From a virus: a stretch of DNA of 40,339 nucleotides. Positions 307-38,888 of the stretch are shown piece by piece. The DNA is taken from UHGV virus genome UHGV-0008619; one strand, written 5' to 3'. Made by a program: the position numbers and the translations under genes. Below the pieces are notes generated by a model that searched no databases, was not told the origin of the DNA, and saw only the letters and a list, made by a program, of their open reading frames with translations. The first letter of the stretch is position 1, and each line of letters opens with the position of its first letter.

Positions 307-339
307 GTATACATTTTGTTAACTGGAGGGATTAACATT

Positions 340-1963: not shown

Positions 1964-1997
1964 ATTTTCCATTTTGTAAACCGGAGGAAATAACATA

Positions 1998-4448: not shown

Positions 4449-4524
4449 TTAATCTGAGCAAACGGCTTACCGGAAAGTTTACCGCTTTCTGGTGGCTGTT
4501 ATCGCGTTTTAAACGAGGCTAAAA

Positions 4525-5082: not shown

Positions 5083-5285
5083 GACGGGTAATATTCTATT
5101 CAGTTGAAACGTTTGTTGACAATACGCGTGTTTATTATCCGTGGGAAGTATACGACGCAATGGTTTATACACCGCCACTGATGCGGAAGTATAAACACGT
5201 AAAATTTAACCGGGTTTTTGTGCCAATGCGCGATGCACTGCGGGCGCTGCGTGGGGAATTACGAAACACAATGCGGATTGTGTAA
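5079..5285 (+). CDS. hypothetical protein
   Basis: 68 aa ORF, start overlaps stop of upstream gene (ATGA coupling). Confidence 0.45.
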   Translation: MRRVIFYSVETFVDNTRVYYPWEVYDAMVYTPPLMRKYKHVKFNRVFVPMRDALRALRGELRNTMRIV

Positions 5286-5295
5286 GGGGTAAGTC

Positions 5296-5523
5296 ATGAA
5301 CAAGGAATTAGATTTAACCGTGGAGGATTTGAGCACGATTGCGGAATACATGCGCGGCGGCGATCCTGATAAGCCTGTCACGGTTGATATAAAATATTTA
5401 AAAGGCGCTTTTATGACTTCTTCGAGATTGGTAAGTCTTGATGCAATTATAAAAGCGCGCTGGGAAAGTTGGCAGGAATATAAAGCGAAAAATAAGGCAA
5501 AAAGAAATAATGCGGCAAATTAG
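5296..5523 (+). CDS. hypothetical protein
   Basis: 75 aa ORF in compact + strand operon. Confidence 0.45.
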   Translation: MNKELDLTVEDLSTIAEYMRGGDPDKPVTVDIKYLKGAFMTSSRLVSLDAIIKARWESWQEYKAKNKAKRNNAAN

Positions 5524-5962
5524 ATTTGAAATAGTAAACGACGCCGTAAAAGAAAACGCTATCAGGCAGATAAGGGAAATCCATCCTGATGACAAAAGCC
5601 CGCTGATAATTACCATCCAGGAGAAAACACGATCACTGAGTCAAAACAGCCTTTTATGGGCGCTATTAACAGACGTTAGCGATCAGGTTAATTGGTACGG
5701 TAAAAAGCTGTCACCGGAAGACTGGAAGGCGGTATTCACTGCCGGGCTTAAGAAATATGGCGTTGTCCCTAATCTGGATAAATCAGGTTTTGTTGTGCTG
5801 GGTACGTCAACCAGCCGGATGAGTAAAGCAGAATTTAGCGAATTAATCGAACTGATCTACTCGTTCGGTGCGGAACATGGTGTTCAGTGGTCTGGCGATA
5901 CGAAGTTAAACGAGGAATTTATAAAACGCTGGGGCAATAATGGTTCGTTATTACATGGCTAA
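5510..5962 (+). CDS. ninB: NinB/Orf-family recombination protein
   Basis: Protein MRQIRFEIVNDAVKENAIRQIREIHPDD...ITIQEKTRSLSQNSLLWALLTDVS matches the lambda NinB N-terminus pattern recalled from memory. Confidence 0.8.
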   Translation: MRQIRFEIVNDAVKENAIRQIREIHPDDKSPLIITIQEKTRSLSQNSLLWALLTDVSDQVNWYGKKLSPEDWKAVFTAGLKKYGVVPNLDKSGFVVLGTSTSRMSKAEFSELIELIYSFGAEHGVQWSGDTKLNEEFIKRWGNNGSLLHG

Positions 5963-6116
5963 ACCTACAGGCATTTTATACAAGATTGATGGCGAATACG
6001 TTTACTATTTTCACAACCAGGCGCGTGATTGGCGGTTGTGTCACGCGCACTTTAAGCACGAAATAGAAAATCACCCTGAATATTTTATCAAAGTTGACAA
6101 TGTAACTGTGGCGTAA
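5940..6116 (+). CDS. small hypothetical protein (58 aa, below ORF-track cutoff)
   Basis: ATG 5940 (or 5955) to TAA 6114-6116, fills gap between ninB and next gene. Confidence 0.3.
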   Translation: MVRYYMAKPTGILYKIDGEYVYYFHNQARDWRLCHAHFKHEIENHPEYFIKVDNVTVA

Positions 6117-6130
6117 TTGAGGATAAGCAA

Positions 6131-6790
6131 ATGAATAAACTTAAAGCAATTGGCGTGATTAGCCATCGCACTAACCCTGAGTGTTACCCATCGTTTGAGG
6201 TAACAACATGCCGCACGGAATATAATTTTGGATCATGCTATTTAGTTGGTGTCCGCGCTGATACTCGCGGCACTTATTCAGTTATGGCGTCAAGCTGGAA
6301 ATTTGATAAATACGCTAATTTATCGAATAAGGATGATGACGGCATGAATAAAGAAAGTGAGATCATTGATGAATTAATCGAAGATGAGCGGCATGATTGC
6401 GATAAACCGGAAGTTACAGAATGGAAGGCAGGAGAAAAGCCGCCGTGCGGAGTGTGGCTTGATTGCATTGGATCAAGAAGCGATATAGTGATTGATGTCG
6501 TTAAGTTTTTCTACCTGGGCGATAACTGGTCTATTGCTCACAGTAAGTTAGAAACTGTTATTGAAACACCAATTGCATGGAAACAATACTCGTACCGCAT
6601 TCACATTGACCCGAAAGAAAAAGCACTGGCGGAAATTGCGTTTGCGCTGGCTACTAAGGTGATTGGTGAAGATGCGGCAAAAGAAATTAATTTTAACCGC
6701 GACAACGAATTTTCATGCGATTATCGCAACATGGCGCAAGCTATTATCGACGGATGTATCGGACACGTTGAATACACGGGGGATAAATAA
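6131..6790 (+). CDS. hypothetical protein
   Basis: 219 aa ORF, GAGGAT RBS upstream of ATG 6131. Confidence 0.55.
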   Translation: MNKLKAIGVISHRTNPECYPSFEVTTCRTEYNFGSCYLVGVRADTRGTYSVMASSWKFDKYANLSNKDDDGMNKESEIIDELIEDERHDCDKPEVTEWKAGEKPPCGVWLDCIGSRSDIVIDVVKFFYLGDNWSIAHSKLETVIETPIAWKQYSYRIHIDPKEKALAEIAFALATKVIGEDAAKEINFNRDNEFSCDYRNMAQAIIDGCIGHVEYTGDK

Positions 6791-7020
6791 TGGATAAGAT
6801 CGGGACAATTCTTCTTAGTCGCCCTGCCATCTGCCGGATGCTGGGCGGAATTAGCAGGGGGACGTTTTATTTATGGCGTAAAAAGTGGGAGGAAAACGGA
6901 ACCCCATTCCCGGCCCCGGTTGATGTATTGGGGACCGGGCGGGGCGTCATGTACCGCTATCAAGAGGTGATGCGGTTCTTTGATAAGATCGGATTAACGC
7001 CAGCCAGAGATAAGACGTAA
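6790..7020 (+). CDS. excisionase-like / AlpA-type HTH DNA-binding protein
   Basis: 76 aa, small basic HTH protein (GGISRGTFYLWRKKWEENGTPFPAPV); convergent with and overlapping 3' end of integrase. Confidence 0.6.
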   Translation: MDKIGTILLSRPAICRMLGGISRGTFYLWRKKWEENGTPFPAPVDVLGTGRGVMYRYQEVMRFFDKIGLTPARDKT

Positions 7021-8174
7021 TCCGCAAATTTATTTAACGCCTCCTTTTGTTCATCAAGATAATCATATTTGTCGTACACCGCCAGTATTCCCCTGAGTGA
7101 ATGGCCTAAGATCTTTTCCGCGATATGTACCGGAACACCTATAGCTGAAAGGTGTGTCCGGCACGTCCTGCGGAGGTCGTGACAGGACCATGATTTACCG
7201 CCCATCCTTTTACGCACGAAGATTGCGGCTACTTTTATCACTGATGCGTTTACTGGCCTGTTACCGCCGTTAATCACTGGCGGGAACACATAATCATACT
7301 CATGGGAGGCTAATACCTCCCTGAGCATTTTTATCGACAAATCTGATAATCCCCGCCTGATTTCACTTCTTGTCTTCGCCACTGCCGCCGGGACGGTCCA
7401 TACCCCGTTATCCAGGTCGAGGTGTTCCCTTCTCATTTTCTGCAACTCCCCCACCCTGCACCCAGTTAGCAATAATAGCCTTAATGCTATCTTGTTTTGA
7501 CGGTAGATCTGCGAATCATCCACCGTTCGCCAGAAATGGCCTATTTCATCGCATGATAAATAACGCTCGCCAACCGCATAATTTTCGCCAACGTCAATAA
7601 CCCTGATATTGTTTATCGCTGTACTGGTCATCAACCCGCGCCGGATAGCGCTGTTCACAACAATCTTCATTCGCTTAAGTATCAGGCCAGCCGTAACCGC
7701 GTGCCCAGCCGCAGTGATCTCGCCGAATATGTCCATCCATTGTTTCGTACTGACATCATCGGCAATATACTCACCGAATTTATCGACAACATGGCGCTTA
7801 AGCGCGCTCCTGACGTCATTATATGCAACCAGCTTAATAACGTTAGGCAGGGATAAATAGTCACTCACAATGGCGCTTATTGTTAATTTGCCACGCTCAA
7901 TATCTATCGCTTGCTTTACTGAAACAGTCGGGTTCTTCCCCTTCGCTAACAGCTCTTTGTATTCTGCCACCGCGTAGCGTGCATCTTTCAATGTCATTCT
8001 GCCGTAATCGCCGATCTTCATCCTCACGGGCTTACCGTTGAACCTGTACCGGAACTGGAAAACAATTTTCCCCTTCGGGCTTATCCTGGCAGACAAGCCA
8101 TCGCGATCTGCTATCTCGTTCGGGCCGTCATACGGCTTGTTTGCTATTGCGCGTAATTTAGTATCCGTCAGCAT
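6960..8174 (-). CDS. int: tyrosine integrase (P4-like)
   Basis: 404 aa; N-terminal arm-binding type region, C-terminal catalytic region with HDLRRT...GH..Y-type residues; strong RBS AAAGAGGTG before ATG 8174. Confidence 0.9.
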   Translation of the reverse strand: MLTDTKLRAIANKPYDGPNEIADRDGLSARISPKGKIVFQFRYRFNGKPVRMKIGDYGRMTLKDARYAVAEYKELLAKGKNPTVSVKQAIDIERGKLTISAIVSDYLSLPNVIKLVAYNDVRSALKRHVVDKFGEYIADDVSTKQWMDIFGEITAAGHAVTAGLILKRMKIVVNSAIRRGLMTSTAINNIRVIDVGENYAVGERYLSCDEIGHFWRTVDDSQIYRQNKIALRLLLLTGCRVGELQKMRREHLDLDNGVWTVPAAVAKTRSEIRRGLSDLSIKMLREVLASHEYDYVFPPVINGGNRPVNASVIKVAAIFVRKRMGGKSWSCHDLRRTCRTHLSAIGVPVHIAEKILGHSLRGILAVYDKYDYLDEQKEALNKFADYVLSLAGVNPILSKNRITS

Positions 8175-8508: not shown

Positions 8509-9861
8509 TTATTTTTCGCTTCCGGTCAACTGACTGACAAGCGCTTCAAGTTTTGCGATCCTCTCATCCATTGCGGCAATGTTGTCGCGCAGGCTTGCGT
8601 TCTCCTCTTCCAGTTCGGTGACGCGGTTATCTGTTTCGCGTGCCACCTGGACAAGTAAACCAGTCACCGCCGCATAGTCAACATTGAGGTAACGAGTTTC
8701 CTCGCGTAGCTCGTTGCCGTCAATGGTCGGGCCTTGCAATGCTTTACCGTAATGAGTAAACGATCCTACAGCCTCCGGCAGCGCCTCCATGACCTCCTGA
8801 GCGATAACGCCAGCGTAAGGCAGGCCGTTTTCCTTAAGGGTATAAGTGTACCCGTTCATTTTACGGACGGCTTCAGTTGCATCACCTATAACCTGAATGT
8901 TGTCTTTCAGGTCGCGGTCAGATGATTGGTTGATTGTAGTACAATTTACCACTCCGTTAACAGCTAATAGCACCGTTTCATCACTATTAACCTGACACTG
9001 ATATAGTAGTTTGTGAGTTGTTTCCGTGCCAACTACTAATGTTTTAAATTCGAGAGCTGAAGGTGAGGACTCTGAACCCCACAGCGTTATCGCGCAATCG
9101 TTAGCAGGACTATTTGCTGCCATCACCCTTATTTTTCTTGACCGATCATCAGAGTGGAAATGAGTATTAGTGGTATGCGTTTCTTTTGCATTTAAAACGC
9201 CATCAATAGCAACGTCACCGAATGTGGTAGAATCACCGGATTTTAATTGTTTTACCCATCTCGTTCCTGTTTCTGTGACATAGTTGTAACAATACAGTGA
9301 TTTGGTGGTGTGCCCAACAAAAACGCCTAAGTATGCTTTAATTCCACTACCATTATCACTTGCCTGTGCGATCCAGCCAGTTAAACACCATTCCCCTGAT
9401 GCTATTGAGGGGAAACCTGTCGCTGTATCAAGAATGCGAGTAAAGCCGACATAATTTGACGGATCGCCGGAAATGTTAGGACAATCTCTGTAAGTTTTGC
9501 CAAGACCTATCTTGTCTCCGATATGGTTCTGGCTCCATTCAAGCGCCTCCGATACTGCCGTTTCCTTACTCTGATAGTAGCGCAATGTTTCGGCTACATC
9601 CTGAGCAAGCCCATCAACTGAGATGGAATCAGATAACAGAATACTAAATTTTGTCCCGGCAGGGATGTCAGGATTAGACGATGGCGTTACTGATAATTCA
9701 GTACCGCTCTTGATTTCTGTGATGGTAAAAATCTGAATAGGATCGCTAACGGCAATGAGCGTGCACCCTTCCCGGATGAGCGAAAGCGGCGCGGTGAAGT
9801 TTGTCCCTGTGCCTGTAACAGTGTTACCGCTAATGGCTATTGTTCCTGCTGTATAAATCAT
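8509..9861 (-). CDS. tail fibre/tailspike with C-terminal intramolecular chaperone (peptidase S74-like) domain
   Basis: 450 aa; C-terminal region DRDLKDNIQVIGDATEAVRKMNGYTYTLKENG...YLNVDYAAVTGLLVQVARE plus terminal coiled coil typical of self-cleaving fibre chaperone. Confidence 0.8.
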   Translation of the reverse strand: MIYTAGTIAISGNTVTGTGTNFTAPLSLIREGCTLIAVSDPIQIFTITEIKSGTELSVTPSSNPDIPAGTKFSILLSDSISVDGLAQDVAETLRYYQSKETAVSEALEWSQNHIGDKIGLGKTYRDCPNISGDPSNYVGFTRILDTATGFPSIASGEWCLTGWIAQASDNGSGIKAYLGVFVGHTTKSLYCYNYVTETGTRWVKQLKSGDSTTFGDVAIDGVLNAKETHTTNTHFHSDDRSRKIRVMAANSPANDCAITLWGSESSPSALEFKTLVVGTETTHKLLYQCQVNSDETVLLAVNGVVNCTTINQSSDRDLKDNIQVIGDATEAVRKMNGYTYTLKENGLPYAGVIAQEVMEALPEAVGSFTHYGKALQGPTIDGNELREETRYLNVDYAAVTGLLVQVARETDNRVTELEEENASLRDNIAAMDERIAKLEALVSQLTGSEK

Positions 9862-16438: not shown

Positions 16439-17143
16439 TTAACCGACCTTGCTTGATCCGGGGAAACATGAAATTGGTAACGGATTGGGGCGCGGGAAAC
16501 GCAAACGGCAACCGCTCAGGCGGTGGCTGCATTTATCCAGTTTTGGATCGCTGGTCGATTCGTCTTTATCTGTAGCTACAGGGCCGCCACTGTATCCGCA
16601 ACCGTCGCCCCGGTATTGCCACTGGCAAACGTCAGCGAGGATTGTGCGCCCAGGGATAACTGCCTTGTCGGCATCAATTGGCGTTGACAGTTCATATTGC
16701 ACCTGGTCGGCTGTTTCTTCGCTCATCGCCTCAACGACGTAAAAAGATACCGCCTCGATAGACGGATCTGCATCCGGGTTGCCATTGGGGAAGTTGACAG
16801 CGTCCAGATATTTTACTTCCACCTGGCGGCGCGTAACCTTCATTCCTCGCAGGTCGTTAAAATCGTTGTTCATCCCGGTGATTAGCCCGCCAATGTTGGC
16901 TACTACCATTTGCGGGCGCGAGTAAACGCCTTCGTTTTTCATTTCGAAGCCAGTAGCCTCGATTGGGTAGCTGTTGTAAGTCACTCCCTTCCAGATAACC
17001 GGGCCGTAATAGCCATTCGCGCCGGAATGGAAGCGGATAACCTCGCCACCCAGGGGCGTCAGGTCCAGTTCAAATAAGTCAATGACCGCGCCGACTCCGG
17101 CATCCACGGAATCAATAATCATTTCTGTAGGTATGCTGCGCAT
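16439..17143 (-). CDS. minor tail protein L-like
   Basis: Lambda L-like sequence incl. GDGCGYSG...C..C cysteine cluster; AAGGTGA RBS before ATG 17143. Confidence 0.85.
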   Translation of the reverse strand: MRSIPTEMIIDSVDAGVGAVIDLFELDLTPLGGEVIRFHSGANGYYGPVIWKGVTYNSYPIEATGFEMKNEGVYSRPQMVVANIGGLITGMNNDFNDLRGMKVTRRQVEVKYLDAVNFPNGNPDADPSIEAVSFYVVEAMSEETADQVQYELSTPIDADKAVIPGRTILADVCQWQYRGDGCGYSGGPVATDKDESTSDPKLDKCSHRLSGCRLRFPRPNPLPISCFPGSSKVG

Positions 17144-17196
17144 TTTATCACCTTGTAATTTTGTGATCGCCATCACGCTAAATCATACCAAAACGG

Positions 17197-17225
17197 TTGA
17201 TTGCGTTTTTTACAATATGTATATT
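17197..17225 (+). promoter_or_regulatory. sigma70-type promoter (TTGATT-17-TATATT) for L-M intergenic cassette
   Basis: Near-consensus -35/-10 with 17-bp spacer, 17 nt upstream of RBS AAGGAAG and ATG 17242. Confidence 0.55.
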
Positions 17226-17241
17226 GTACTCAAAAGGAAGC

Positions 17242-17472
17242 ATGGTTAACAAAATGGCGCGGAGGTGTGAGGTGGATGATAAGGTGTGGAGGTTGACGGT
17301 GTTCCTTAGTGATGGCAGGGAAATGACTGTTGCCCTGTATAAAGATGAAGGCGAGGCACTTACTGACGCGCTATTACTCGCTGAAGACGAAAGGGTTTTG
17401 GGGTACAGGATTAAACCTGTCAAATGGGAGGTTAACAAAAAATGCAAAAATACAGTCTTGACGTGTGGTTAA
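17242..17472 (+). CDS. hypothetical protein (cassette gene 1)
   Basis: ATG 17242 with AAGGAAG RBS; 76 aa. Confidence 0.5.
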   Translation: MVNKMARRCEVDDKVWRLTVFLSDGREMTVALYKDEGEALTDALLLAEDERVLGYRIKPVKWEVNKKCKNTVLTCG

Positions 17473-17789
17473 GTGGTTACAAGGAGTGTTTTGGATTATT
17501 TGATAGCGAAGAAGTAGCCCTTGAAGAAGGAAGGATTCTTGAATGTAGTTTAGGCCATCCGGTGAAATATGCTGCTAATCCGGTGCAGGTAATTGATGAG
17601 GTGGAAAACATGAACCCGAAAGATATTAACTTTAACGTCAATGTTGAATTTGCTGACTCTATGGATCAGGCTTGCCCTGGTGAAATACACGCAAAAGGTT
17701 TCCCGGCAGACGATCCGCAAGCAAAACGCGAATACGAAAAAGCTGCGAAAGACTTCTGTATAGATAACTTAAGTTGCTTTGATAAATAG
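17442..17789 (+). CDS. hypothetical protein (cassette gene 2)
   Basis: GGGAGG RBS before ATG 17442; 115 aa, acidic. Confidence 0.55.
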   Translation: MQKYSLDVWLSGYKECFGLFDSEEVALEEGRILECSLGHPVKYAANPVQVIDEVENMNPKDINFNVNVEFADSMDQACPGEIHAKGFPADDPQAKREYEKAAKDFCIDNLSCFDK

Positions 17790-17797
17790 GCGGCAAT

Positions 17798-18046
17798 ATG
17801 GGGCGGCGCAATCACGGCGATTATGTGTACACGTTGAAACAGGCCGCCCGCCTCATCGGTTATCATGAGCACGAATTTATTGATTTGCTGATTGAGCGCG
17901 GGATACTGTACCAGGTCTGTTTAACGCTGTACCCAAAAGCGAAATACCTACAGGAAAAGTTATTTATCATCATGACGGACGAAAACCAGGTTAATCATTC
18001 ATTCGTCACTGATAAGGGCGTTAATTATCTGCGTGATAACTTATAG
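17798..18046 (+). CDS. hypothetical protein with HTH-like segment (cassette gene 3)
   Basis: 82 aa; segment YTLKQAARLIGYHEHEFIDLLIERGIL looks HTH-like. Confidence 0.5.
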   Translation: MGRRNHGDYVYTLKQAARLIGYHEHEFIDLLIERGILYQVCLTLYPKAKYLQEKLFIIMTDENQVNHSFVTDKGVNYLRDNL

Positions 18047-18056
18047 GTGACAGATT

Positions 18057-18173
18057 ATGAAAATAGAAGTTTTGGCGCTAATAATAATGGGATTGATAGT
18101 GTTTGGCGTTCATGCTGTAGATCTGGACTGGAAAACGATAGCGGAAAATATAGCGTTAATGGAAATGGGATAA
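18057..18173 (+). CDS. small hydrophobic membrane peptide, 38 aa (cassette gene 4)
   Basis: AGGTGA RBS 6 nt before ATG 18057; MKIEVLALIIMGLIVFGVHAVDLDWKTIAENIALMEMG; followed by terminator. Confidence 0.4.
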   Translation: MKIEVLALIIMGLIVFGVHAVDLDWKTIAENIALMEMG

Positions 18174-18179
18174 TAATAA

Positions 18180-18205
18180 CCCCGCCGTGGCGGGGTGTTT
18201 TTTTT
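18180..18205. terminator. rho-independent terminator (bidirectional)
   Basis: CCCCGCC-GTG-GGCGGGG hairpin followed by T8 on + strand, T-rich on - strand. Confidence 0.7.
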
Positions 18206-18386
18206 AATCGTAGGATAGAAATGCTACTTCTTTGCCATCCCAAGTCGTACAGCCGATATATCCATCACCCATGTCATGAAGATACCACGTCTCACCGTTA
18301 TCAGCCCGTACAGTGAGATCATTAATTTCATAGTCGGCAAACAATGTAAAAGCGCCAGTGCGCTCCACTACACAAAAATAAGGCAT
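18204..18386 (-). CDS. hypothetical protein (60 aa) downstream of M
   Basis: ATG 18386 preceded by GGGAGGGGGG RBS directly after M stop. Confidence 0.5.
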   Translation of the reverse strand: MPYFCVVERTGAFTLFADYEINDLTVRADNGETWYLHDMGDGYIGCTTWDGKEVAFLSYD

Positions 18387-18396
18387 ACCCCCTCCC

Positions 18397-18750
18397 TTAA
18401 TTAATAACTTGCTCAAACGTTGCGTTTAGTGTGTACACAGGCCCGTCTTTGGTCATACTCCAGTTACGACAAACGAAAAGCCTTTGCACCCCATCCATCG
18501 AAGGCGTCCAGTAGAAAGCATCGACAGCGCCTCGCGCCCTCAAGAATGCTTCTGCCTGGATCGCTACATTCCCACTATCACCGCATCCGGCGCTACTGCC
18601 TTTAAAAACCAGGGTATAACTATCAAGTAATGTGTTAATCCCTTTCGCCTGCCTTTGTTCATAGTTGTCACCAAGTTTAATGACAGATACGTTTGGTTCC
18701 CTGGTCACGCTGTAGCTTCTTTGCGGCGTCCATCTGAAAACTTCCGGCAT
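18397..18750 (-). CDS. minor tail protein M-like
   Basis: 117 aa; FRW near N-terminus and C-terminal FEQVIN match lambda M pattern; GGGGG RBS. Confidence 0.8.
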   Translation of the reverse strand: MPEVFRWTPQRSYSVTREPNVSVIKLGDNYEQRQAKGINTLLDSYTLVFKGSSAGCGDSGNVAIQAEAFLRARGAVDAFYWTPSMDGVQRLFVCRNWSMTKDGPVYTLNATFEQVIN

Positions 18751-18773
18751 GATTCCCCCTATAAGTTACATAT

Positions 18774-18814
18774 TGCATACATCTTTACGCGTTGCTACGC
18801 GAAAAATGAGAAAT
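18774..18814. repeat. conserved ~40-bp element, copy 1 (upstream of M)
   Basis: TGCATACATCTTTACGCGTTGCTACGCGAAAAATGAG; near-identical to 31521..31560; contains hairpin CGCGT-TGCT-ACGCG. Confidence 0.6.
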
Positions 18815-18849
18815 TCATCACAAGAATTATAACCAGTTTACAAAATGGC

Positions 18850-18878
18850 TTCACATAAGGCGTGACAAGATGTATATA
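18850..18878 (+). promoter_or_regulatory. candidate promoter (TTCACA-17-TATATA) for M-H intergenic cluster
   Basis: -35/-10-like hexamers with 17-bp spacer about 40 nt upstream of ATG 18920. Confidence 0.35.
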
Positions 18879-18919
18879 GTAAGCAAGAAGAAAAAGCAGT
18901 ACCGACAAGGGGGGGCAAT

Positions 18920-19075
18920 ATGGAACGCTATGTGGTTGTGATGCTGAACAAAGCATTCGAACAGGTGGAAGTTGCGATTGTGAAGGGCTTTGATGATGCA
19001 TTCAAATACGGTCAATTCATGATGAATGCAAAAGAAGATGAATACCGTGATTTCTTCCTGAAAGTGGTCAACTAA
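18920..19075 (+). CDS. small hypothetical protein (51 aa)
   Basis: GGGGGG RBS before ATG 18920; below ORF-track cutoff. Confidence 0.4.
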   Translation: MERYVVVMLNKAFEQVEVAIVKGFDDAFKYGQFMMNAKEDEYRDFFLKVVN

Positions 19076-19093
19076 TGGATTGCGGGGTGGGTT

Positions 19094-19348
19094 ATGAAAT
19101 TGGTAGCGATTGGTAAAAACCTGAAAGCACAGAAAAACGCACAGGACCGGATCATCAAAAAGGGCAAGGCTTTATTAAATGCTTTCCTGAAAAAAGAGGC
19201 CAACCCCAAAAAATTACGCGATGGCTACGGTTATAAATTTGACATCAACCCCGATTGGCGGTTATTCAGCGAAGATTTAAAGATGTGGTTAATTATTGAC
19301 CACCTGGAATATAACAGGCACTGTGGGGTGAAAGGGGCGCATAAGTAA
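19094..19348 (+). CDS. hypothetical basic protein
   Basis: 84 aa, Lys-rich; GGGGTGGG RBS before ATG 19094. Confidence 0.5.
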   Translation: MKLVAIGKNLKAQKNAQDRIIKKGKALLNAFLKKEANPKKLRDGYGYKFDINPDWRLFSEDLKMWLIIDHLEYNRHCGVKGAHK

Positions 19349-19462
19349 GGCGGGCATGAAGGGCGATAAATCCACCTGGCGGGAGAACTGGAATATTTGG
19401 TTGGTGATTTTTGTGAGGGTATATATCTCGCGGAATGGTCGGATATAAAAATGGGTGTGATT

Positions 19463-20395
19463 ATGGCGCGAAAAATGACACATGAAGAACATATTGCAGA
19501 TATAGCAAATGTCAATCCGCGTGTTGATATTTTAGGAGAAATTACAGGCTGCAATGATAAGGTGTTGTGTCGTTGCAGAGTTTGTAACCACGAATGGCGT
19601 ACTACGCCGCACAGCCTTAAGACTGGCAGGGGCTGCCCCGAATGTAAAAGAACAAAGATAGCACGAATAAAACAACTATCACATAACGATCATGTCGCTG
19701 CAATTGCTAATGTTAATCCATTTGTTGAAGTGCTAGAAAAAATTGTTAATGTAAAGAAAAAGATCACATGTCGTTGTAATAATTGCAAAAACATATGGAT
19801 GACTACGCCAAATGATCTCAAAAACGGTCACGGCTGTCCGAAATGCTCTGGCGTAGCGAAGCTGTCACATGAAGAGCAGATTGCAGCTATTGCGAAAGTT
19901 AACCAAAATGTTGAGGTAATAGGTAATATCGTTAATGACAAAACAAAAGTATCATGCTGCTGCAAGGTTTGTGGTCATGTGTGGTCGGCTACGCCTAACG
20001 ACCTTAAAAATGGGCGCGGCTGTCCGAAATGCGCGAAACGCGGGTTTTTATCCCACGATCACGGAAAACTTTACATCATGGTTGATGATCTGGAGGTGCC
20101 AACAATGATGAAAATCGGCGTGAGCGTTAAGGAGAACGAGCGAAGAAATAAAGTATTAAAAAGCGCACATAAAGCAGGTGTCAGAATCCCTGATTTGTAT
20201 GTCGCGAAAACGTGGGTGGGGCCAACTGAAAAAGTACAAGAATTAGAAAGCACGATGCATAAGGCTTTTAGCAATTATAAAATTAACTTTCCTGTAAAAT
20301 TTGATGGGAGTAATGAATTTTTCTACTACAGGCCGGAAGTATTCAGCATGGTAGAAAGTACATACAGTGATATTGTAAATAAAAATGCGGCATGA
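19463..20395 (+). CDS. protein with three tandem zinc-ribbon repeats and C-terminal T5orf172/GIY-YIG-like domain
   Basis: Three ~58 aa repeats each with C-x2-C ... GxGCPxC; C-terminal KLYIMVDD...KIGVS...ERRNKVL resembles T5orf172; start 19463 or 19451 (track start is TTG 19397). Confidence 0.6.
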   Translation: MARKMTHEEHIADIANVNPRVDILGEITGCNDKVLCRCRVCNHEWRTTPHSLKTGRGCPECKRTKIARIKQLSHNDHVAAIANVNPFVEVLEKIVNVKKKITCRCNNCKNIWMTTPNDLKNGHGCPKCSGVAKLSHEEQIAAIAKVNQNVEVIGNIVNDKTKVSCCCKVCGHVWSATPNDLKNGRGCPKCAKRGFLSHDHGKLYIMVDDLEVPTMMKIGVSVKENERRNKVLKSAHKAGVRIPDLYVAKTWVGPTEKVQELESTMHKAFSNYKINFPVKFDGSNEFFYYRPEVFSMVESTYSDIVNKNAA

Positions 20396-20435
20396 ATATT
20401 CAGCCCACCACCATTAGTGACGGGCTTATTCTTTG

Positions 20436-22643
20436 TTATCTTTTTCGTGGCTGTATAATCCCCCCGGGGCGCGTGCTCTGCTCCCTCACAACACCCATAG
20501 CAACCTTCTTCATCGTCTCTTGCAGTTTGGCGCTGTCCTGCTCGGTCCATCCGTTCTCGGCTGTTATGTTGATGGTAACAGGCATGTTGATGCCGCCACC
20601 GCCGCCAATATCACGGCCCGGAATGATACGACCGTTCTCGCCTGGGATCATGTACTGCCTACCGTTATTGGTCTGGAAAAGCTCGGGGACTTTGTTTTCA
20701 CCGACCCTATAAAGATTGCCACCATTAACCGCACCGCCGTTATAACGAGCACCAGCAAGCCCAAGCGCCTTAGCCCCAGCCACACCAGTGGCAAGACTCG
20801 TGCCCCCCACGGTCGCCGCTCCGCCCATCGTGGCAACGTTTGCCAGGTATGCAGGAGTGGCCCACGCAGAGCCTAATGCAGTAGCCTCGGCTAGTGCTTT
20901 AGCTGTTGCCGCAGCGCTGGCGGCCTCACCGATCAATTGCTGTTTAACCCATTCAGCCCCCATTTGAACAAGTGTACCGATAACGGAGGAAAGGATTGTA
21001 TTGCCAATGTTAGCCAGCGCCTGCTGCCAGCTTTGAGTACCGTTAACCAGGCCCACAAGCGCATTTGTTGCAGATCCGCCCATTGCATCAACGGTATCGC
21101 CCAACAGTTTGTAGCTCATTGACTGTGCTTTATATCGCTCCCATTCAAGGGTGAGCATTTCCTGTGCGTGTGCTCTTTCTTGTTCCCTCATATATTGCTC
21201 AGTAGCGCCAAGATCTTCCAGCATTTGCTTACGAACGGTCCATTCATTTTGCGCCTGCTGTATTGGGTCCAGCTCGCCGCGCTTCTGATCCAGTGAAGGA
21301 ATCATTTTGTCCCATTTTTCTTGCAGCCTATTGATCGGGTCGTTAATTTCTGCCAGAGTTTCGCGCAATTCATCACCGATTCCCTTCATTGCGCCTTTGT
21401 ATTCAAGCATGGTTATTTTCCCGGCTTTAAAGGCTGCATCTATGGCTTTTTGTGATTCAAGCGCTTTGCGCATTGCTGCTGAATCTTCGTTATATGCATC
21501 TGAAATGCGCACACCCTGTTCCGCAAGGCGCTCGGCTTCTGATTTGCCGGTTTTTTTACCTTTGCCATTCTTACCCTTACCACCAGGTTGAGGCTTAAAC
21601 GTTATGCGACTTACACCAGCTTGCCCCGTGGGGAGAGTGGAAACAAATGGCTGTTCTCCATCACCAAACCATCCAACCTGTTTCGCTTGAGCGCGGAACA
21701 AACTAAGCCCAGGTACTATCCCCTCAAACGCCCCAGCCAATAGCCACAATTTGTCAGTTAATGACGTGCTATCGCTCGCCAGGGACTTAAACCAACCGGA
21801 TAACATCTGAACTTCACTAGAAACAGCCTTTATACCAGTAACTACCAAATCAGACACCCCAAGCGCTTGGTTTAGCGTGTCAATTAACAGATCGAAGTTG
21901 TTTTTTAGCTCGTTAAATGCCTGATCTGTTGTTGTTGGCAGCTTTGCGAAGTCCTTCTCTATGTCTTCTGCTCCAGCAAGGATTGCGTTTGTAACATCCT
22001 CGGCGGTGAGCTTACCATCAAGCATTCTTGCGCGAAGTTCACCCATCGAGATCCCCATCTGTTTAGCGACGCGACGCCACACTTCCGGCATGTTTTCAAG
22101 CACAGAGTTGTATTCTTCCGCGCGAACAATGCCGCCAGTCAGTGACTGTCCTAACTGGCGAAGTGCGTTTGACATTTCATCTGAGGAGCTACCTCCGATA
22201 CGGCCTATTTTCTGAAGCGAGTCGGTAAGCTGCAATACCTGTTGACTTGTCGCACTGGTATCCTGTAGGCTGGCCTTTAGGCTTTCCCACAGCTTCCCGG
22301 TGCTTTGAACACTCATCCCTGTGCGATTCGATATCTGAATAATCCCGTCAAAATTCGATTTCGCGTCAGCAATGCCGCTTGATAGCCGCGTTACCCTGGC
22401 GCGTAGCAGATTTACGTTATCTGCGATCTCCAGGAATTTTTTTGCAGCCATGACCATCATTCCAATGTTCACAGCTTTGGATAACTTACTTATCGTGGTA
22501 TTAAGTGACTGCACTGATTTATCGGTACGTTTGGCACCTTGCTCGATTTTATCAAACGAGTCCTCAGCCTTGCGTTGAGCTACGAGTAACCGCTCGGTTT
22601 TTGCGTCAACGGTATACTCAATCGTGCCCACATTTGTTGTCAT
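20436..22643 (-). CDS. tail tape measure protein
   Basis: 735 aa, long helical/low-complexity Ala/Gly-rich protein, position between chaperone and M; GGAG RBS. Confidence 0.85.
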   Translation of the reverse strand: MTTNVGTIEYTVDAKTERLLVAQRKAEDSFDKIEQGAKRTDKSVQSLNTTISKLSKAVNIGMMVMAAKKFLEIADNVNLLRARVTRLSSGIADAKSNFDGIIQISNRTGMSVQSTGKLWESLKASLQDTSATSQQVLQLTDSLQKIGRIGGSSSDEMSNALRQLGQSLTGGIVRAEEYNSVLENMPEVWRRVAKQMGISMGELRARMLDGKLTAEDVTNAILAGAEDIEKDFAKLPTTTDQAFNELKNNFDLLIDTLNQALGVSDLVVTGIKAVSSEVQMLSGWFKSLASDSTSLTDKLWLLAGAFEGIVPGLSLFRAQAKQVGWFGDGEQPFVSTLPTGQAGVSRITFKPQPGGKGKNGKGKKTGKSEAERLAEQGVRISDAYNEDSAAMRKALESQKAIDAAFKAGKITMLEYKGAMKGIGDELRETLAEINDPINRLQEKWDKMIPSLDQKRGELDPIQQAQNEWTVRKQMLEDLGATEQYMREQERAHAQEMLTLEWERYKAQSMSYKLLGDTVDAMGGSATNALVGLVNGTQSWQQALANIGNTILSSVIGTLVQMGAEWVKQQLIGEAASAAATAKALAEATALGSAWATPAYLANVATMGGAATVGGTSLATGVAGAKALGLAGARYNGGAVNGGNLYRVGENKVPELFQTNNGRQYMIPGENGRIIPGRDIGGGGGINMPVTINITAENGWTEQDSAKLQETMKKVAMGVVREQSTRPGGIIQPRKR

Positions 22644-22678
22644 GATTGTTACTCCACTTTTGTGATCTGTGTATCTAT

Positions 22679-22722
22679 TTTATACAAAATGTCTTTACTA
22701 CAACGACTCCATTTTGTATAAA
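22679..22722. promoter_or_regulatory. 12-bp perfect inverted repeat (TTTATACAAAAT/ATTTTGTATAAA) overlapping candidate promoter TTTACT-17-TATAAA
   Basis: Arms at 22679-22690 and 22711-22722, 20-bp spacer; right arm contains -10-like TATAAA. Confidence 0.45.
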
Positions 22723-22799
22723 GAGACTAAAGGAAAGGGATAGAGTAAAGGGGTTTGAAAGGACCGGATAAACCGGAGGAAGCAAAAGAGGATAAGAAA

Positions 22800-22889
22800 A
22801 TGAAAAACGTAAACTATCGTCCCAACGAACATGAACGCTATGCGGACTTCATAGAAGAAATGTTAAAAGCACTTAAAAACAAAAATTAA
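22800..22889 (+). CDS. small hypothetical protein (29 aa)
   Basis: GAGGA RBS 7 nt before ATG 22800; MKNVNYRPNEHERYADFIEEMLKALKNKN. Confidence 0.3.
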   Translation: MKNVNYRPNEHERYADFIEEMLKALKNKN

Positions 22890-22901
22890 TCGAGGCGGGT
22901 T

Positions 22902-23399
22902 ATGAAACGGTTAGTAAAAGTCGCGGTAGCTGCGGTCATGGCAATATTCGCGGTCAATGCAAATGCAAGTAATAAAGTCAGCAAGATGTGCGACGCTATT
23001 TATCCAGCCTACGAAAAAGCATATACAATGGCAAATGTAAACTTTTTTTCAATTGGTAGGCACGGCGTTAACTGGGAGTATTTCATCTTAAATAAAGATA
23101 GCAGGACCAAAAAGAGTGACGCTAAAATGATAAAAGCGCACAGTGAAAGTTTCGCTCACATGATGGCTGTTATTGAAAACAAAGAAAATGACAATGAATT
23201 TAAAAACTTTGTCGCCGGACTTGCCATCATGGCTGCCGAACGGGCGATAAAGGATCACGACAATAACGCTTATGCCGCTGCCGACGAGATGGCATTAGAT
23301 AGGGTAAGAATTGACTTCAAAAACATGTGCATCAAAGAAGGCGCTAACATGTATAAAAAAGTAATAGATAAACACCACGAATATTATATAGGTTATTAA
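22902..23399 (+). CDS. secreted/periplasmic hypothetical protein (moron)
   Basis: 165 aa with N-terminal signal peptide MKRLVKVAVAAVMAIFAVNANA; on opposite strand within tail operon; followed by terminator. Confidence 0.65.
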   Translation: MKRLVKVAVAAVMAIFAVNANASNKVSKMCDAIYPAYEKAYTMANVNFFSIGRHGVNWEYFILNKDSRTKKSDAKMIKAHSESFAHMMAVIENKENDNEFKNFVAGLAIMAAERAIKDHDNNAYAAADEMALDRVRIDFKNMCIKEGANMYKKVIDKHHEYYIGY

Positions 23400-23428
23400 A
23401 AAAAGGCCCGGCTAATCCCGGGCTTTTT
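23397..23428. terminator. bidirectional rho-independent terminator
   Basis: A-run, GCCCGG-CTAATC-CCGGGC hairpin, T5. Confidence 0.7.
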
Positions 23429-24092
23429 CTTGCTCGCTATTTTCCATTCTTTTTAATATCTCCACAGCCTCCCTCATTCCATCGTCATAAGCCTTTTTAT
23501 CCAGCAATACATCTGGTCGTTTTTGTTTGCTTCTTGCTTCTGGCGGCGTTTTAGCACGCACAGCGGCCCTGTATCCGGTCATTGTCATGCCCCACGCTTC
23601 TGATTCAGATAACCCCAGGTGGGCAACGGCAGAATAAACGAAATCAAGTACATCAAATGTCGGCTTGTATTCACCTTCCTGGATCTCGCTTGTATTTTCT
23701 TCCGGCCCGTCACCGATTAAACCGTGGTACATGCAGTGTTGCGCCAGCGTGATAACATCATCAACTGGCATTATTCCGGGCTTTAACCTTAATTTACCCG
23801 AAGGAGTAAGCCAGCATTCGCCCAATAACGGGCCTATTTCGCATTCTGAGCAACATTTCAGTACGTGGATGGATGTTTGCACTATCTCACCATAACACCG
23901 CGCCATAATGCGATTGCGGAGGTCTGGATCTGTGGGTAATCGTGAAGGGTATTTGCTACCGTGGATGGTTGCGAAACATTCCACAAGCTCCCTGTCATTA
24001 CCGATTTTAGCCATCGCAGCAAAACACGGGTTAAATTCATAGCGCTTACCGTTCACCACAGCCGCAAATTGTCCTGTACGAACATGGATCAT
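23412..24092 (-). CDS. tail assembly chaperone (G/GT-position protein)
   Basis: Position between major tail and tape measure genes; ATG 24092 with AGGGTGA RBS; acidic C-terminus. Confidence 0.5.
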   Translation of the reverse strand: MIHVRTGQFAAVVNGKRYEFNPCFAAMAKIGNDRELVECFATIHGSKYPSRLPTDPDLRNRIMARCYGEIVQTSIHVLKCCSECEIGPLLGECWLTPSGKLRLKPGIMPVDDVITLAQHCMYHGLIGDGPEENTSEIQEGEYKPTFDVLDFVYSAVAHLGLSESEAWGMTMTGYRAAVRAKTPPEARSKQKRPDVLLDKKAYDDGMREAVEILKRMENSEQEKARD

Positions 24093-24135
24093 AGCATTCA
24101 CCCTAAAAGGAAGGGGCCAAATGGCCCCTTGTTGT

Positions 24136-24612
24136 TTATGCGGCAACTGGATCGGTTACAGTTACCTGGCCCGCGCTTTCGCACTCAATGGACCAGGTGG
24201 AAACATCATCGTTCGGGTCTTCTTCTTTAAAGGAAGTGCAAAGGAACGGACCTTCAGTCACATCAAGCGGAGAAACAAGTTTAAGCCACACATAAGGTTG
24301 CGCTCCGGTTGTTTCTCCTGGGTTAATAACGTGGCGTTTAAGTGCCTTCTGGTTGTGGATTTCTTCAGTACGGGATACGCCGTCGCCGGAGAAAGAAACA
24401 GATTTGTAAGTCACCATTGATTCTTTCGTGTAATCCGCCGATTTATCAGCGGTGGCGTCTGCGGTTTCCCATTCTACGGAAAGCGTTTTGCCGCGCATCA
24501 TGCCTAACGCTTTGTAATCGTCAGATGACGGCTTCGCATTAGGGCAAGCGATAGCGTAGAATGCGGCAACGTCGCGGCCTAAAAATGCGCCTTTTTGACA
24601 AGTCTGAGACAT
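24136..24612 (-). CDS. major tail (tube) protein
   Basis: 158 aa, position immediately upstream of chaperone/TMP; AAGAGG RBS. Confidence 0.65.
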   Translation of the reverse strand: MSQTCQKGAFLGRDVAAFYAIACPNAKPSSDDYKALGMMRGKTLSVEWETADATADKSADYTKESMVTYKSVSFSGDGVSRTEEIHNQKALKRHVINPGETTGAQPYVWLKLVSPLDVTEGPFLCTSFKEEDPNDDVSTWSIECESAGQVTVTDPVAA

Positions 24613-38774: not shown

Positions 38775-38888
38775 CTTCTTGCCTCCCCTCCGCCTTTCCG
38801 TGGCTTATATATAACAAAATGGCACTGTCGAAACAATGCCATTTCGTAAACCTTGTGATACAGATCACATTTATGGTTGTCCAACGCC

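Follow-up and report, generated by a model that had tools for sequence, protein, structure and literature searches.

In lambda, the early promoters PR and PL carry the operator pairs OR1-OR2 and OL1-OL2, respectively, with sites about 24-25 bp apart, whose centres near -41 and -17 lie over the -35 and -10 elements, and at PRM the site OR2 at -42 activates and OR3 at -19 represses. The late region of phage P22 contains immI (mnt-arc-ant), an operator-controlled unit that is off in lysogens and transiently on after infection. In lytic phages, T4 Imm, T4 Spackle (a small helical periplasmic protein) and T5 Llp are signal-peptide or lipoprotein products that are made early and protect the envelope of the infected cell. 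With respect to genomic position, the closest described system is HK97 gene 15, the first moron described, which is expressed from the prophage, yields an envelope-targeted product and has a putative terminator of its own (Juhala et al. 2000; Cumby et al. 2012; reviewed in PMC3594210). Accessory envelope-targeted proteins are also described for mEpimmI phages, namely the Lpp exclusion lipoproteins, which were identified via their lipobox and exclude phages, according to the available sections of PMC11893012; these sections contain no mention of the term moron, and no description of the slot between the DUF6246 and tape-measure genes that is considered here was found in them.

The cassette analysed in the present study is located in a 40,339-nt stretch of viral DNA (UHGV-0008619, hereafter the window) from an mEp021-type (mEpimmI) temperate coliphage, a siphophage. 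The tail operon is on the minus strand in the order tail tube (24136-24612), DUF6246 (23412-24092), cassette and tape measure (20436-22643), and the cassette itself is on the plus strand, antisense to this operon. The upstream flank of the slot was assigned by Pfam DUF6246 (1.7e-53), phrog_791 and the RefSeq annotation of relatives, and the flank downstream in the direction of the tail operon by Pfam TMP_3 (1.2e-52) together with PHROG tape-measure families. An earlier reading of the sequence alone had called the DUF6246 gene a chaperone; by gene order only, its position being typical of tail assembly chaperone genes, it may be one. The cassette resembles HK97 gene 15 in its slot between tail assembly chaperone genes and tape measure and in being a small inserted unit with a terminator and an envelope product. 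However, gene 15 is oriented like the tail operon and has a single product, an inner-membrane protein of 62 aa related to YebO, whereas the cassette here is antisense and combines a conserved regulatory module, which includes a 27-29 aa gene, with exchangeable cargo and operator-like boxes. A BLASTP search of HK97 gp15 against 131 ORF products of at least 26 aa from the slot loci (cargo plus spurious ORFs) gave no hit at E values up to 10.

Several features that define morons in the sense of Juhala and Hendrix were found at this locus. The GC content of the cassette (38.4%) deviates from that of the tape-measure (50.3%) and DUF6246 (47.6%) genes; it has in silico its own promoter (a conserved -35/-10 pair in fixed register) and its own two-way terminator; and it constitutes extra DNA between genes that are adjacent in relatives, as indicated by collinear mEpimmI genomes with differing cargo and by a distant DUF6246 phage (L242) in which the slot is empty and a gap of 63 nt separates the DUF6246 gene from that of the TMP_3 protein. 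The proposal of a secreted-protein moron agrees with this promoter and terminator, the opposite strand, the low GC content and the signal peptide described below, but it missed that the slot is group-wide and its content exchangeable. A strong bidirectional intrinsic terminator overlapping the stop of the gene in the chaperone position, as also proposed, is indeed present at 23400-23431: its stem (23406-23423), flanked by an A-run and a T-run, spans the last codons and stop of the DUF6246 gene and folds at about -18 kcal/mol on either strand (-18.1 on the plus and -17.6 on the minus strand). An automated scan lists this terminator on the minus strand, and the GenBank entries of mEp phages carry ARNold terminator annotations at the corresponding position. 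It lies in the path of tail-operon transcription, and the suggested reliance on antitermination is supported by the Nus-dependent, N-like and Q-like antitermination that the available part of PMC11893012 documents for the mEpimmI group.

A cassette was detected at the same place in about 60 related mEpimmI phages and prophages. The repeat-flanked promoter and the two-way terminator are common to all of them, most add a purine-rich leader and a gene of 27-29 aa, and the constant parts of the slot extend into the start of the cargo gene, with its ribosome-binding site and initial codons. By megablast, the promoter, the leader with the small ORF and the terminator matched whereas the cargo was unmatched in 6 phage records and in 27 of 28 E. 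coli genomes, and a side-by-side comparison of 18 loci revealed at least six types of cargo. Secreted proteins, lipoproteins and membrane proteins make up most of it. The same DUF6246/tape-measure context was observed in 43 of the 44 viral contigs that carry the repeat. The cargo is thus exchangeable and would be swapped by recombination between the homologous constant flanks. In other distant DUF6246 phages (L233-L241), cassette promoters are too heterogeneous for operators of the respective phage to be assigned.

At the promoter end of the cassette lies a perfect inverted repeat, whose 13-nt arms (22679-22691, TTTATACAAAATG; 22710-22722, CATTTTGTATAAA) are 100% complementary and separated by a spacer of 18 nt. 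It is the sole perfect inverted repeat of at least 13 nt within 60 nt in the whole window, and the 12-bp repeat with a 20-bp spacer noticed earlier is the same element minus one base per arm. The candidate promoter said to overlap it is of the sigma-70 type and can be read directly from the plus strand as described, with the hexamers TTTACT (-35, 22694-22699) and TATAAA (-10, 22717-22722) separated by 17 nt and matching the consensus at 4/6 and 5/6 positions, respectively; transcription would start near 22729. This promoter is absent from the list of an automated scan because the scan demands T at the last -10 position. The final T is missing in every related locus (TATAAA, TATAAG or TATAGA), and this genuinely weakens the case for a promoter; no better -10 hexamer conserved in both long-form and short-form cassettes was found 3' of the repeat.

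Each arm corresponds to one 13-bp box of the type ATAC-N5-G(T/G)A(T). The upstream one (ATACAAAATGTCT, 22682-22694) has its centre at 22688, or about -41, and its last base opens the -35 hexamer. The downstream one (CTCCATTTTGTAT, 22707-22719) has its centre at 22713, or about -16, and extends three bases into the -10 hexamer. The centre-to-centre distance is 25 bp, or about 2.3 helical turns, and the boxes overlap the -35 and -10 regions. Using a position weight matrix (PWM) trained exclusively on sites outside the window, the left and right boxes scored 16.6 and 16.1 bits, and the repeat was the top 25-bp-spaced box pair in the window (16.1 bits, compared with a maximum of 7.6 in 40 shuffles). 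Across 46 unique promoters, the arms are conserved at about 98-99%, a figure partly built in for the viral contigs, where the scan required exact arms, compared with 83-88% for the -35 hexamer and spacer; the -35 hexamer varies among loci (TTTACT, TTCACT, TTCATT, TTTGCT) and the arms are constant, the right box being a perfect ATACATTTTGTAT in most loci. The idea that the half-site is a UP element and nothing else was rejected, considering that an inverted copy overlies the -10 region at several promoters.

The arrangement is reminiscent of lambda PR and PL, with the layout of OR2/OR1 at PR, in having two dyad-type sites with near-equal spacing and position and a site type common to left and right early promoters. 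It differs in that the box is 13 bp long (ATAC-N5-GTAT) as against 17 bp for the lambda site, and in that the candidate operators are placed in the late tail region, where they would drive an accessory cassette. The same arrangement recurs in two further antisense cassettes of the tail operon (slots 2 and 3), which are located in the interval between the M-like and tape-measure genes and in that between the L-like and M-like genes; their promoters have two boxes with equal spacing but imperfect complementarity. Further promoters of the same design are present elsewhere in the genome.

A repeat of this kind might instead act as an RNA hairpin in the late minus-strand tail transcript, serving processing, stability or tape-measure translation, with the promoter overlap being secondary. 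On the minus strand the repeat folds at -13.8 kcal/mol (z -3.2), the tape-measure start codon is 35 nt further downstream on that strand, and the late transcript must include the repeat. In one lineage (L019-L021), both arms have changed compensatorily (AAAACG with CGTTTT), as a hairpin would predict, but this double change fits a pair of operators or repair of the palindrome just as well as a hairpin in the RNA. On the other hand, the stem is rich in A and U and closes a loop of 18 nt, the promoters of slots 2 and 3 keep the box spacing without perfect complementarity, and single boxes incapable of forming a hairpin occur in fixed register to the -35 and -10 elements at pL, at OR and upstream of nutR2. 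We consider the hairpin highly improbable as the primary role of the repeat.

Evidence that the box is an operator comes from early regions of related phages. In a different temperate phage (L031), five box sites were found at one mismatch or less, compared with 0.4 hits per shuffle at up to two mismatches. Three of them lie directly upstream of a CI-like repressor gene; the remaining pair makes up the identical inverted repeat, which there surrounds the promoter of a gene for an N-like protein. The result is a three-part OR and a two-part OL, all built from this box type. The repressor of this phage is 44% identical to mEpimmI Rep, and their helix-turn-helix segments are nearly equal (GITKGAVSHWLN vs GITKGGLSHWLN). 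In the mEpimmI prophage M15, which carries the same cargo as the window (96% DNA identity), the OR-like and pL regions share only the box and nut boxA among words of at least 11 nt. The same dyad site is accordingly found at both OL and OR in L031 (3+2) and in M15, where the OR copies are weaker, with a moderate PWM score of 10.6 bits. Six PWM hits of at least 14.6 bits were obtained in the M15 early region, four of which are in annotated intergenic DNA, and the sixth-best hit in shuffled sequences never exceeded 11.2 bits. The mEpimmI pL reads GTATACAAAATG-GA-TTGACT-N17-TATATT, so the box adjoins the -35 hexamer in the register of the left arm; this arrangement is present in more than 20 mEpimmI contigs, which were retrieved by searching for the box combined with TTG. 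At pL the -41 box alone is strong, and the candidate at -16 (TTACGGGGCGTAT) keeps the outer half-sites only and is missed by the PWM. The register of the right arm (CC[A/G]TTTTG followed by TA...) recurs at the pR-like and nutR2-upstream promoters of M15. Single boxes were also found directly upstream of replication genes at window positions 309 and 1967, so the role of the box may be broader or a different one, which counts against the operator reading. The claim that the repeat is operator-like is well founded in that its arms are the box of the early promoters of the group and of the OR and OL of L031. Based on these comparisons, we infer that the box is the operator of the phage CI-like repressor (Rep) and probably of a Cro-like protein too. 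No operator sequences of Rep021 are described in the available part of PMC11893012.

Upstream of the repeat is another conserved element (22654-22676), which overlaps the tape-measure 5' UTR of the other strand. It contains TGTGATC, a motif that is 99.7% conserved over the 46 unique promoters and was absent from the scan pattern. The element is ambiguous: it could be a third, degenerate box (CCACTTTTGTGAT, 22654-22666; ATACAAAATGTGA at this position in most related loci) or a CRP-like half-site (TGTGA-N6-TATCT, 22661-22676, centre about -60.5). On the latter reading, the promoter would be a host-controlled cAMP-CRP class I promoter and the repeat an A/T-rich upstream or spacer element. The centre at -60.5 is near the -61.5 expected for class I, variants of the site match the 22-bp CRP consensus at 12-18 of 22 positions, and a same-design promoter at 38808-38869 (minus strand) has a perfect TGTGA-N6-TCACA at equal distance. 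However, the site in the window is poor (12/22, with TATCT as its right half), the element can also be read as the third box or as part of the tape-measure 5' UTR, and the inverted copy over the -10 region is left unexplained. Control by CRP in place of the repressor appears quite doubtful to us; moreover, it is compatible with repressor control and hence no true alternative to it.

The explanation we favour, to which we give about an even chance judging from sequence comparisons, is that the cassette occupies a moron slot and has an immunity-controlled promoter, which is repressed by Rep in stable lysogens and fires upon infection or induction. In an established lysogen, Rep would keep the promoter closed. 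When Rep is absent, either just after infection or after induction, the cassette promoter would fire, and it would be turned down again before Q-modified late transcription crosses the cassette and its terminator to reach the tape measure. Such a unit would be similar to P22 immI in being a separately regulated unit within the late genes of a temperate phage, whereas immI encodes an antirepressor and repressors with operators of their own, and the cassette here carries envelope cargo and apparently uses the main immunity operators.

The sequence-only reading had instead regarded the module as lysogen-expressed. On that account it would be a classic moron, the repeat would bind either Rep as an activator at -41, with the -16 box doing no more than limiting expression, or only a lytic shut-off protein such as the Cro-like one, and the secreted protein would help the lysogen, for example through exclusion or envelope modification. 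Morons are by definition on in a repressed prophage, and HK97 gp15, in the same slot, is one of them (PMC3594210). The -41/-16 layout equally fits lambda PRM, so that activation in the lysogen may occur, and a -10 hexamer without its final T (TTTACT/TATAAA) would suit a weak promoter in need of an activator; both are weak points of the repression model. In addition, lipoprotein and membrane cargo resembles prophage exclusion factors, exclusion lipoproteins encoded elsewhere in the genomes of the same group block infection when supplied from a plasmid (available sections of PMC11893012), and a neighbouring cassette of the same design carries a gene for a ParE-like toxin, a type usually on in lysogens. 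Against expression in the lysogen, the -16 box equals or surpasses the -41 box (16.1 vs 16.6 bits in the window, a perfect box in most loci), and cooperative filling of both would block the -10 region. Furthermore, pL, which is necessarily off in lysogens, has its -41 box in equal register, the L031 early promoter shows the identical two-box arrangement, and the third cassette of this design includes a KilAC/ANT-like gene, a type usually off in lysogens. Thus, expression in the lysogen is not backed, considering that boxes at early promoters and at the OR and OL of L031 point to control by the repressor, probably repression, and we regard it as rather unlikely, although a real contender.

With regard to the products of the cassette, the purine-rich leader (22729-22799, plus strand) is conserved in long-form cassettes and contains a small hairpin (CCGG-ATAAA-CCGG, 22764-22776) with an invariant stem and a variable loop. 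Its folding energy of -6.7 kcal/mol (z -1.7) is not significant, and covariation is not seen because the stem never varies; an RNA element is therefore not claimed. No nut-like boxA was found in the leader, and an Rfam search of 22400-23600 gave sub-threshold hits only, all on the terminator hairpin, with no match for leader or repeat. The leader is followed by a gene for a 29-aa protein (MKNVNYRPNEHERYADFIEEMLKALKNKN; 22800-22889, plus strand) preceded by the Shine-Dalgarno sequence GAGGA, whose product has neither a signal peptide nor a transmembrane segment and gave no significant match in Pfam, PHROGs, NCBIfam or PADLOC. Among 25 unique DNA versions, pN/pS is 0.12, variable sites are distributed 11/6/20 over the three codon positions, and a one-codon indel is in frame. 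Judged by this pattern, the 27-29 aa gene is under purifying selection. The mini-ORF seen earlier does exist at 29 aa, but it is not a throwaway leader ORF, since it is a conserved protein-coding gene.

The cargo gene of the window, ORF165 (22902-23399, plus strand), encodes 165 aa, with a signal peptide encoded by 22902-22967 and the mature part by 22968-23396. The signal peptide, which had been called clear, was judged by inspection and shows Sec-type (signal peptidase I) features: an N-terminus of MKRLVK / VAVAAVMAIFAV / NANA|S with a 12-residue hydrophobic core (hydropathy 2.9 over residues 7-18), no other hydrophobic segment and no lipobox. ORF165 and the Lpp lipoproteins are from the same phage group and both envelope-targeted by prediction or annotation, but ORF165 differs from them in the lack of a lipobox. 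Structure prediction gives a four-helix bundle, and two cysteines (Cys30 and Cys143) are conserved. The family is tiny and restricted to E. coli (6 clusters in a set of 5.8 billion proteins; a profile search against 1.84 billion representatives yielded 2 representatives and nothing outside the family), and every member with an examined locus sits in the DUF6246/tape-measure slot. ORF165 had no significant match in Pfam (none below E = 0.05), PHROGs or NCBIfam, no PDB sequence matched below E = 1 and no fold match was obtained, PADLOC models did not hit it or two other cargo types, and no likeness in sequence or fold to Ivy, MliC/PliC, PliG or T4 Spackle was found. With family, defence-system and fold matches all absent, neither the lysozyme-inhibitor-like nor the virulence-associated role that had been suggested finds support. 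Going by its signal peptide, the cargo most probably has the cell envelope as its site of action, and it is plausible that it guards the infected cell against superinfection or loss of progeny. It would then resemble T4 Imm, T4 Spackle and T5 Llp, and its predicted helical build and signal peptide recall Spackle in particular.

It is conceivable, and we put this forward tentatively, that mEpimmI phages possess an early accessory regulon, in which at least three antisense tail cassettes have pL-like promoters with a pair of immunity operators. If so, these morons would be shut off in lysogens and switched on jointly by infection or induction, and their operators would clear the path for late transcription. 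They would represent a class of morons that benefits the infecting phage and not the lysogen, and whose regulatory flanks stay conserved when the cargo between them is exchanged. The slot supplies uncharacterised secreted, lipoprotein and membrane proteins, together with the 27-29 aa protein, for exclusion and envelope screens, and the plasmid pRep021 and the mEp phage collection exist for such tests. Morons are usually seen as genes that are on in the prophage and benefit the host, whereas here a whole phage group, one that is common in the human gut, uses the classic moron slot for an exchangeable cassette and wires it, along with at least two neighbours, to an apparent immunity operator. 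If confirmed, this would reveal the operator of the mEp021-type repressor, which has so far not been published, and account for the coexistence of antisense cassettes with a tail operon whose transcription must traverse them. It would also show that temperate phages can use accessory envelope proteins as early functions in infection.

All features reported in the sequence-only reading (the repeat, the promoter, two ORFs, the signal peptide, and the terminator) were recovered from the sequence and the ORF list. The perfect inverted repeat consists of two 13-nt arms (22679-22691 and 22710-22722) lying 18 nt apart, and no other perfect inverted repeat of at least 13 nt within 60 nt is present in the 40-kb window. 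It overlaps a + strand promoter (TTTACT 22694-22699 and TATAAA 22717-22722, with 17 nt between them), which was absent from the automated promoter-scan list of the window because the last base of its -10 hexamer is A and not T. Two + strand ORFs with good Shine-Dalgarno sequences follow, of 29 codons (22800-22889) and 165 codons (22902-23399), and the N-terminus of the 165-aa product (MKRLVK, a 12-residue hydrophobic core, and NANA|S) has the appearance of a textbook Sec signal. The terminator hairpin (stem 23406-23423) serves both strands, with a fold of approximately -18 kcal/mol either way and a - strand tail of U7; the convergent DUF6246 gene has its stop codon inside this hairpin. Genes on the - strand are arranged in the order tail terminator, tail tube (24136-24612), DUF6246 (23412-24092), cassette, and tape measure (20436-22643). 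The neighboring gene had previously been called a chaperone gene; its position fits, whereas the label itself is backed for DUF6246 by gene order only. The GC content of the cassette is 38%, compared with 48-50% in its neighbors. Its leader carries a small CCGG hairpin with an invariant stem and a variable loop, which was statistically unremarkable in a folding test and matched no Rfam family. A separate G+C-rich hairpin at 24111-24130 (AAGGGGCCAAATGGCCCCTT) lies between the tail tube and DUF6246 genes, corresponds to the ARNold terminator in mEp phage record annotations, and may govern how much tube protein is made relative to the downstream tail proteins; HK97 likewise has a putative terminator directly after its major tail gene (HK97 annotation).

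The flanks match the mEpimmI group (archetype mEp021), including mEp515, mEp010, mEp013, mEp044, mEp554, and MagusPhagus as well as E. coli prophages. These phages, described as a group in 2025, are Nus-dependent, non-lambdoid temperate siphophages; their N-like protein (Gp17) works at three nut sites, and they also have a Q-like function and a single common CI-like repressor, Rep021 (PMC11893012). That article does not use the word 'moron' or give operator sequences, and its passages on the group do not describe the slot cassette. The integrase gene (6960-8174, - strand) directly adjoins the tail-fibre region (8509-9861, with a Peptidase_S74 chaperone domain), and therefore the window is a phage-form (attP-joined) genome and not an integrated prophage. 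Replication genes fill positions 1-6800, and the immunity region is absent from the window. Among the former, the 816-aa DnaB-like replicative helicase (1998-4448, +) has its DnaB_C domain in two stretches, and its residues 419-460 match LAGLIDADG_3 weakly; these features point to an inserted intein or homing endonuclease. Just upstream is a gene for an HNH_3/AP2 endonuclease (1355-1963).

The gap between the DUF6246 and tape-measure genes is an exchangeable slot. Megablast matches cover its first ~260 nt (22661-22921: promoter, leader, mini-ORF, and first cargo codons) and the terminator, and the cargo itself was unmatched except in strain M15 (96% identity), one of 5426 complete E. coli genomes. 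By extracting and comparing first 18 and then 66 loci side by side, we found that these flanks enclose at least nine different cassette compositions. Some cassettes encode the 165-aa protein or its relatives of 160 aa, and others encode unrelated proteins with signal peptides (116-119 or 137-138 aa). A VasI/TagO-like lipoprotein (Pfam VasI, 1.7e-15) occurs together with either a BamE/OsmE-like lipoprotein or a 106-aa protein, two small membrane proteins of 35 and 100 aa form a further type, and several combinations are rarer. Most cargo products have a signal peptide, lipobox, or membrane segments, and a few (such as the 106-aa and 74-aa proteins) have no export features. Because cargos with unrelated mature domains carry a common signal-peptide start (MKRL.K...NANA), the sequences suggest recombination in which the ribosome-binding site plus signal-peptide region and the terminator act as homologous flanks. 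The slot is empty in a distant DUF6246 phage (L242), where only 63 nt separate the DUF6246 gene from that of a TMP_3 protein, and holds 1-2 kb of opposite-strand genes in other distant relatives. HK97 gene 15, the first moron ever named, occupies the same position (PMC3594210; HK97 annotation). As a kind of element, the window cassette is a moron, and its slot is the archetypal one for morons. However, HK97 gene 15 has no sequence relation to the slot cargo and is in sense orientation, whereas the window cassette is antisense to the tail operon.

A search of 5.8 billion proteins with the 165-aa cargo returned six clusters, all from E. coli (48-99% identity), and one further distant family member came from a profile search covering 1.84 billion representatives. 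All five members whose locus was retrieved (M15, P0004, P0006, P0007, and the window) are in this slot. In their alignment, the cysteines C30 and C143 never vary and a core (GLAIMAAER...DRVRIDFK) is conserved, and the AlphaFold model (pLDDT 71, pTM 0.75) predicts a signal helix followed by a four-helix bundle.

The 29-aa ORF is a real gene, judging from its substitution pattern: in 25 distinct DNA versions, changes at codon positions 1/2/3 number 11/6/20, pN/pS is 0.12, and the sole length change within the ORF is one codon lost in frame. Its product, MKNVNYRPNEHERYADFIEEMLKALKNKN, showed no export signal and no family match. Leader and 29-aa gene are both missing from about one-third of cassettes, chiefly those of VasI/TagO type, in which the cargo begins ~45 nt past the -10. 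Some loci (L009, L028, L053, and L064) have a ~92-nt purine-rich leader insert between the promoter and the CCGG hairpin, creating a lysine/arginine-rich ORF of 30-32 aa, which overlaps the beginning of the 27-29 aa gene. In the early region of the M15 prophage (L066, 16452-16488), a 100-nt intergenic gap contains two boxes 24 bp apart, ATACATTTTGTAT (perfect) and ATCCGTTTTGTAA, followed by a ribosome-binding region, CGGAGGAAGCAAAA, with 14-nt identity to that preceding the 29-aa gene; the regulatory module seems to be reused within an mEpimmI genome.

The repeat was detected in 44 viral contigs and lies in the slot in 43 of them. The lone exception (L031, IMGVR_UViG_3300023280_000099) comes from another temperate phage, of which it covers 9.4 kb. 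In it, identical arms lie on either side of a promoter (TTGCAT-17-TATATT) located downstream of a CI-like repressor gene; the gene that this promoter precedes encodes a protein with an arginine-rich motif resembling the one in N-like Gp17. The L031 repressor and mEpimmI Rep share 44% identity, and their helix-turn-helix segments are almost the same. The repressor gene is separated from OL by a Panacea/SocA-like gene (called by eye) and a gene for a membrane protein. When each arm was read as a 13-bp box with consensus ATACAAAATGTAT (ATAC-N5-GTAT), L031 contained five sites that differed from it at no more than one position, against 0.4 hits in shuffled sequence even with up to two mismatches. 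Three of the five are immediately upstream of the repressor gene, and the early leftward promoter has the other two. These sites, a candidate three-part OR (2458-2528) and two-part OL (4738-4775), have by analogy the pattern of lambdoid operators. In M15, the only words of at least 11 nt common to the cro-like/rep intergenic region and the region downstream of rep are the box and nut boxA. The downstream box is at a near-consensus promoter before the N-like gene (GTATACAAAATG-GA-TTGACT-N17-TATATT), and the left arm in the window (TATACAAAATG-TC-TTTACT) is in the same register. A scan demanding a box and then TTG recovered this promoter type from more than 20 mEpimmI contigs, and an inverted box, CC(A/G)TTTTG, followed by a -10 is also present at a pR-like promoter and upstream of nutR2.

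With a position weight matrix (PWM) built from sites outside the window only, the best 25-bp-spaced pair in the window was the two cassette boxes (16.1 bits vs at most 7.6 in 40 shuffles). With a matrix lacking any M15 site, the M15 early region yielded six hits of at least 14.6 bits, four of them in annotated intergenic DNA, and the sixth-best shuffle hit reached at most 11.2 bits. Conservation over 46 distinct slot promoters was 98-99% in the arms (a value biased for viral contigs, for which exact arms were the selection criterion), 88% in the -35 hexamer, and 83% in the rest of the spacer. We consider it fairly probable that the arms are operators of the Rep/Cro family. A role as an RNA hairpin on the late transcript, with a -13.8 kcal/mol fold 35 nt ahead of the tape-measure start and both arms altered together in one lineage, would be secondary at best, as boxes occur singly at other promoters. 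Single boxes were also observed at 309-321 (15.0 bits) and 1967-1979 (17.6 bits), ~20 nt upstream of the start codons of two early-region genes, before a 384-aa ORF beginning near 341 and the DnaB-like helicase gene at 1998 (itself preceded by TTCCATTTTGTAAACCGGAGGAAATAACATAATG), respectively; the M15 prophage has the same arrangement (L066, position 7232). They may mark internal promoters under operator control; alternatively, the box may do something else as well.

Transcription is expected to start near 22729, judging from the -10, and the box centres (22688 and 22713, 25 bp apart) would then lie at about -41 and -16. In lambda, PR is shut by a pair of repressor dimers that bind OR2/OR1 cooperatively, and PL likewise at OL2/OL1. 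Because the cassette has this layout, the repeat is predicted to be an immunity operator pair. The cassette promoter would be early-type: Rep would keep it shut in lysogens, it would open immediately after infection or induction, and a Cro-like protein would probably close it again before opposing late transcription arrives. This off-in-lysogens, on-early behavior is tentative, slightly short of an even chance, and its direction is one we infer. The same box positions may instead be read as those of lambda PRM, which is activated from -42 and repressed from -19, and the promoter would then be activated rather than shut off in lysogens. The cassette promoter is weak, its -10 lacking the final T, and the -16 box at mEpimmI pL is only half-site-like (TTACGGGGCGTAT). 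The conserved upstream TGTGATC has its centre at -60.5 and may be a half-site for CRP; a same-design promoter at 38808-38869 has a perfect TGTGA-N6-TCACA at equal distance. In most relatives, however, this stretch can be read as a third box, ATACAAAATGTGA. Late transcription would have to cross the - strand terminator and then 770 nt of antisense cassette before the tape-measure gene, which fits the Q-like antitermination noted for the group in PMC11893012.

Promoters of similar design were observed elsewhere in the window. A second antisense cassette (18751-20435, +; GC content 41%), between the M-like minor tail gene (18397-18750, -) and the tape-measure gene end, comprises a 51-aa ORF and genes for two larger products: a protein of 84 aa with a ParE_like toxin domain, and one of 310 aa in which treble-clef zinc-ribbon, CapR, and T5orf172 domains were recognized (PADLOC gave a weak PDC-S57 match). 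Its + strand promoter has the design of the slot promoter: box TTACAAAATGGCT (18838-18850), -35 TTCACA, 17 nt, -10 TATATA (18873-18878), and second box TGACAAGATGTAT (18863-18875). A third (17177-18396, +) is flanked by the L-like minor tail gene (16439-17176) and the M-like one. It consists of three small ORFs (17242-17472, 17442-17789, and 17798-18046, the last with a KilAC/ANT antirepressor-type domain; Pfam ANT, 7.4e-07). Its + strand promoter (TTGATT 17197-17202, 17 nt, TATATT 17220-17225) has box TTACAATATGTAT over the -10 (17210-17222) and a box-like element, one base longer, at 17185-17197. The promoter at 38808-38869 (-) points in the direction of the late genes, upstream of small ORFs (46, 99, and 85 aa), and combines a CRP-type perfect palindrome, TGTGATCTGTATCACA (38869-38854), box TTACGAAATGGCA, second box TGCCATTTTGTTA, -35 TTGTTT, 17 nt, and -10 TATATA (38813-38808).

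What is new is that cargo is exchanged at this slot while a regulatory module and a 27-29 aa protein are conserved there, that its cassette runs antisense to the tail operon, and that the cargo family is an orphan restricted to the slot. Also new, the promoters of this cassette and of the two neighboring antisense cassettes appear from their sequences to carry the phage's own candidate immunity operators. The interest of the finding lies in this regulatory logic and not in the cargo protein.
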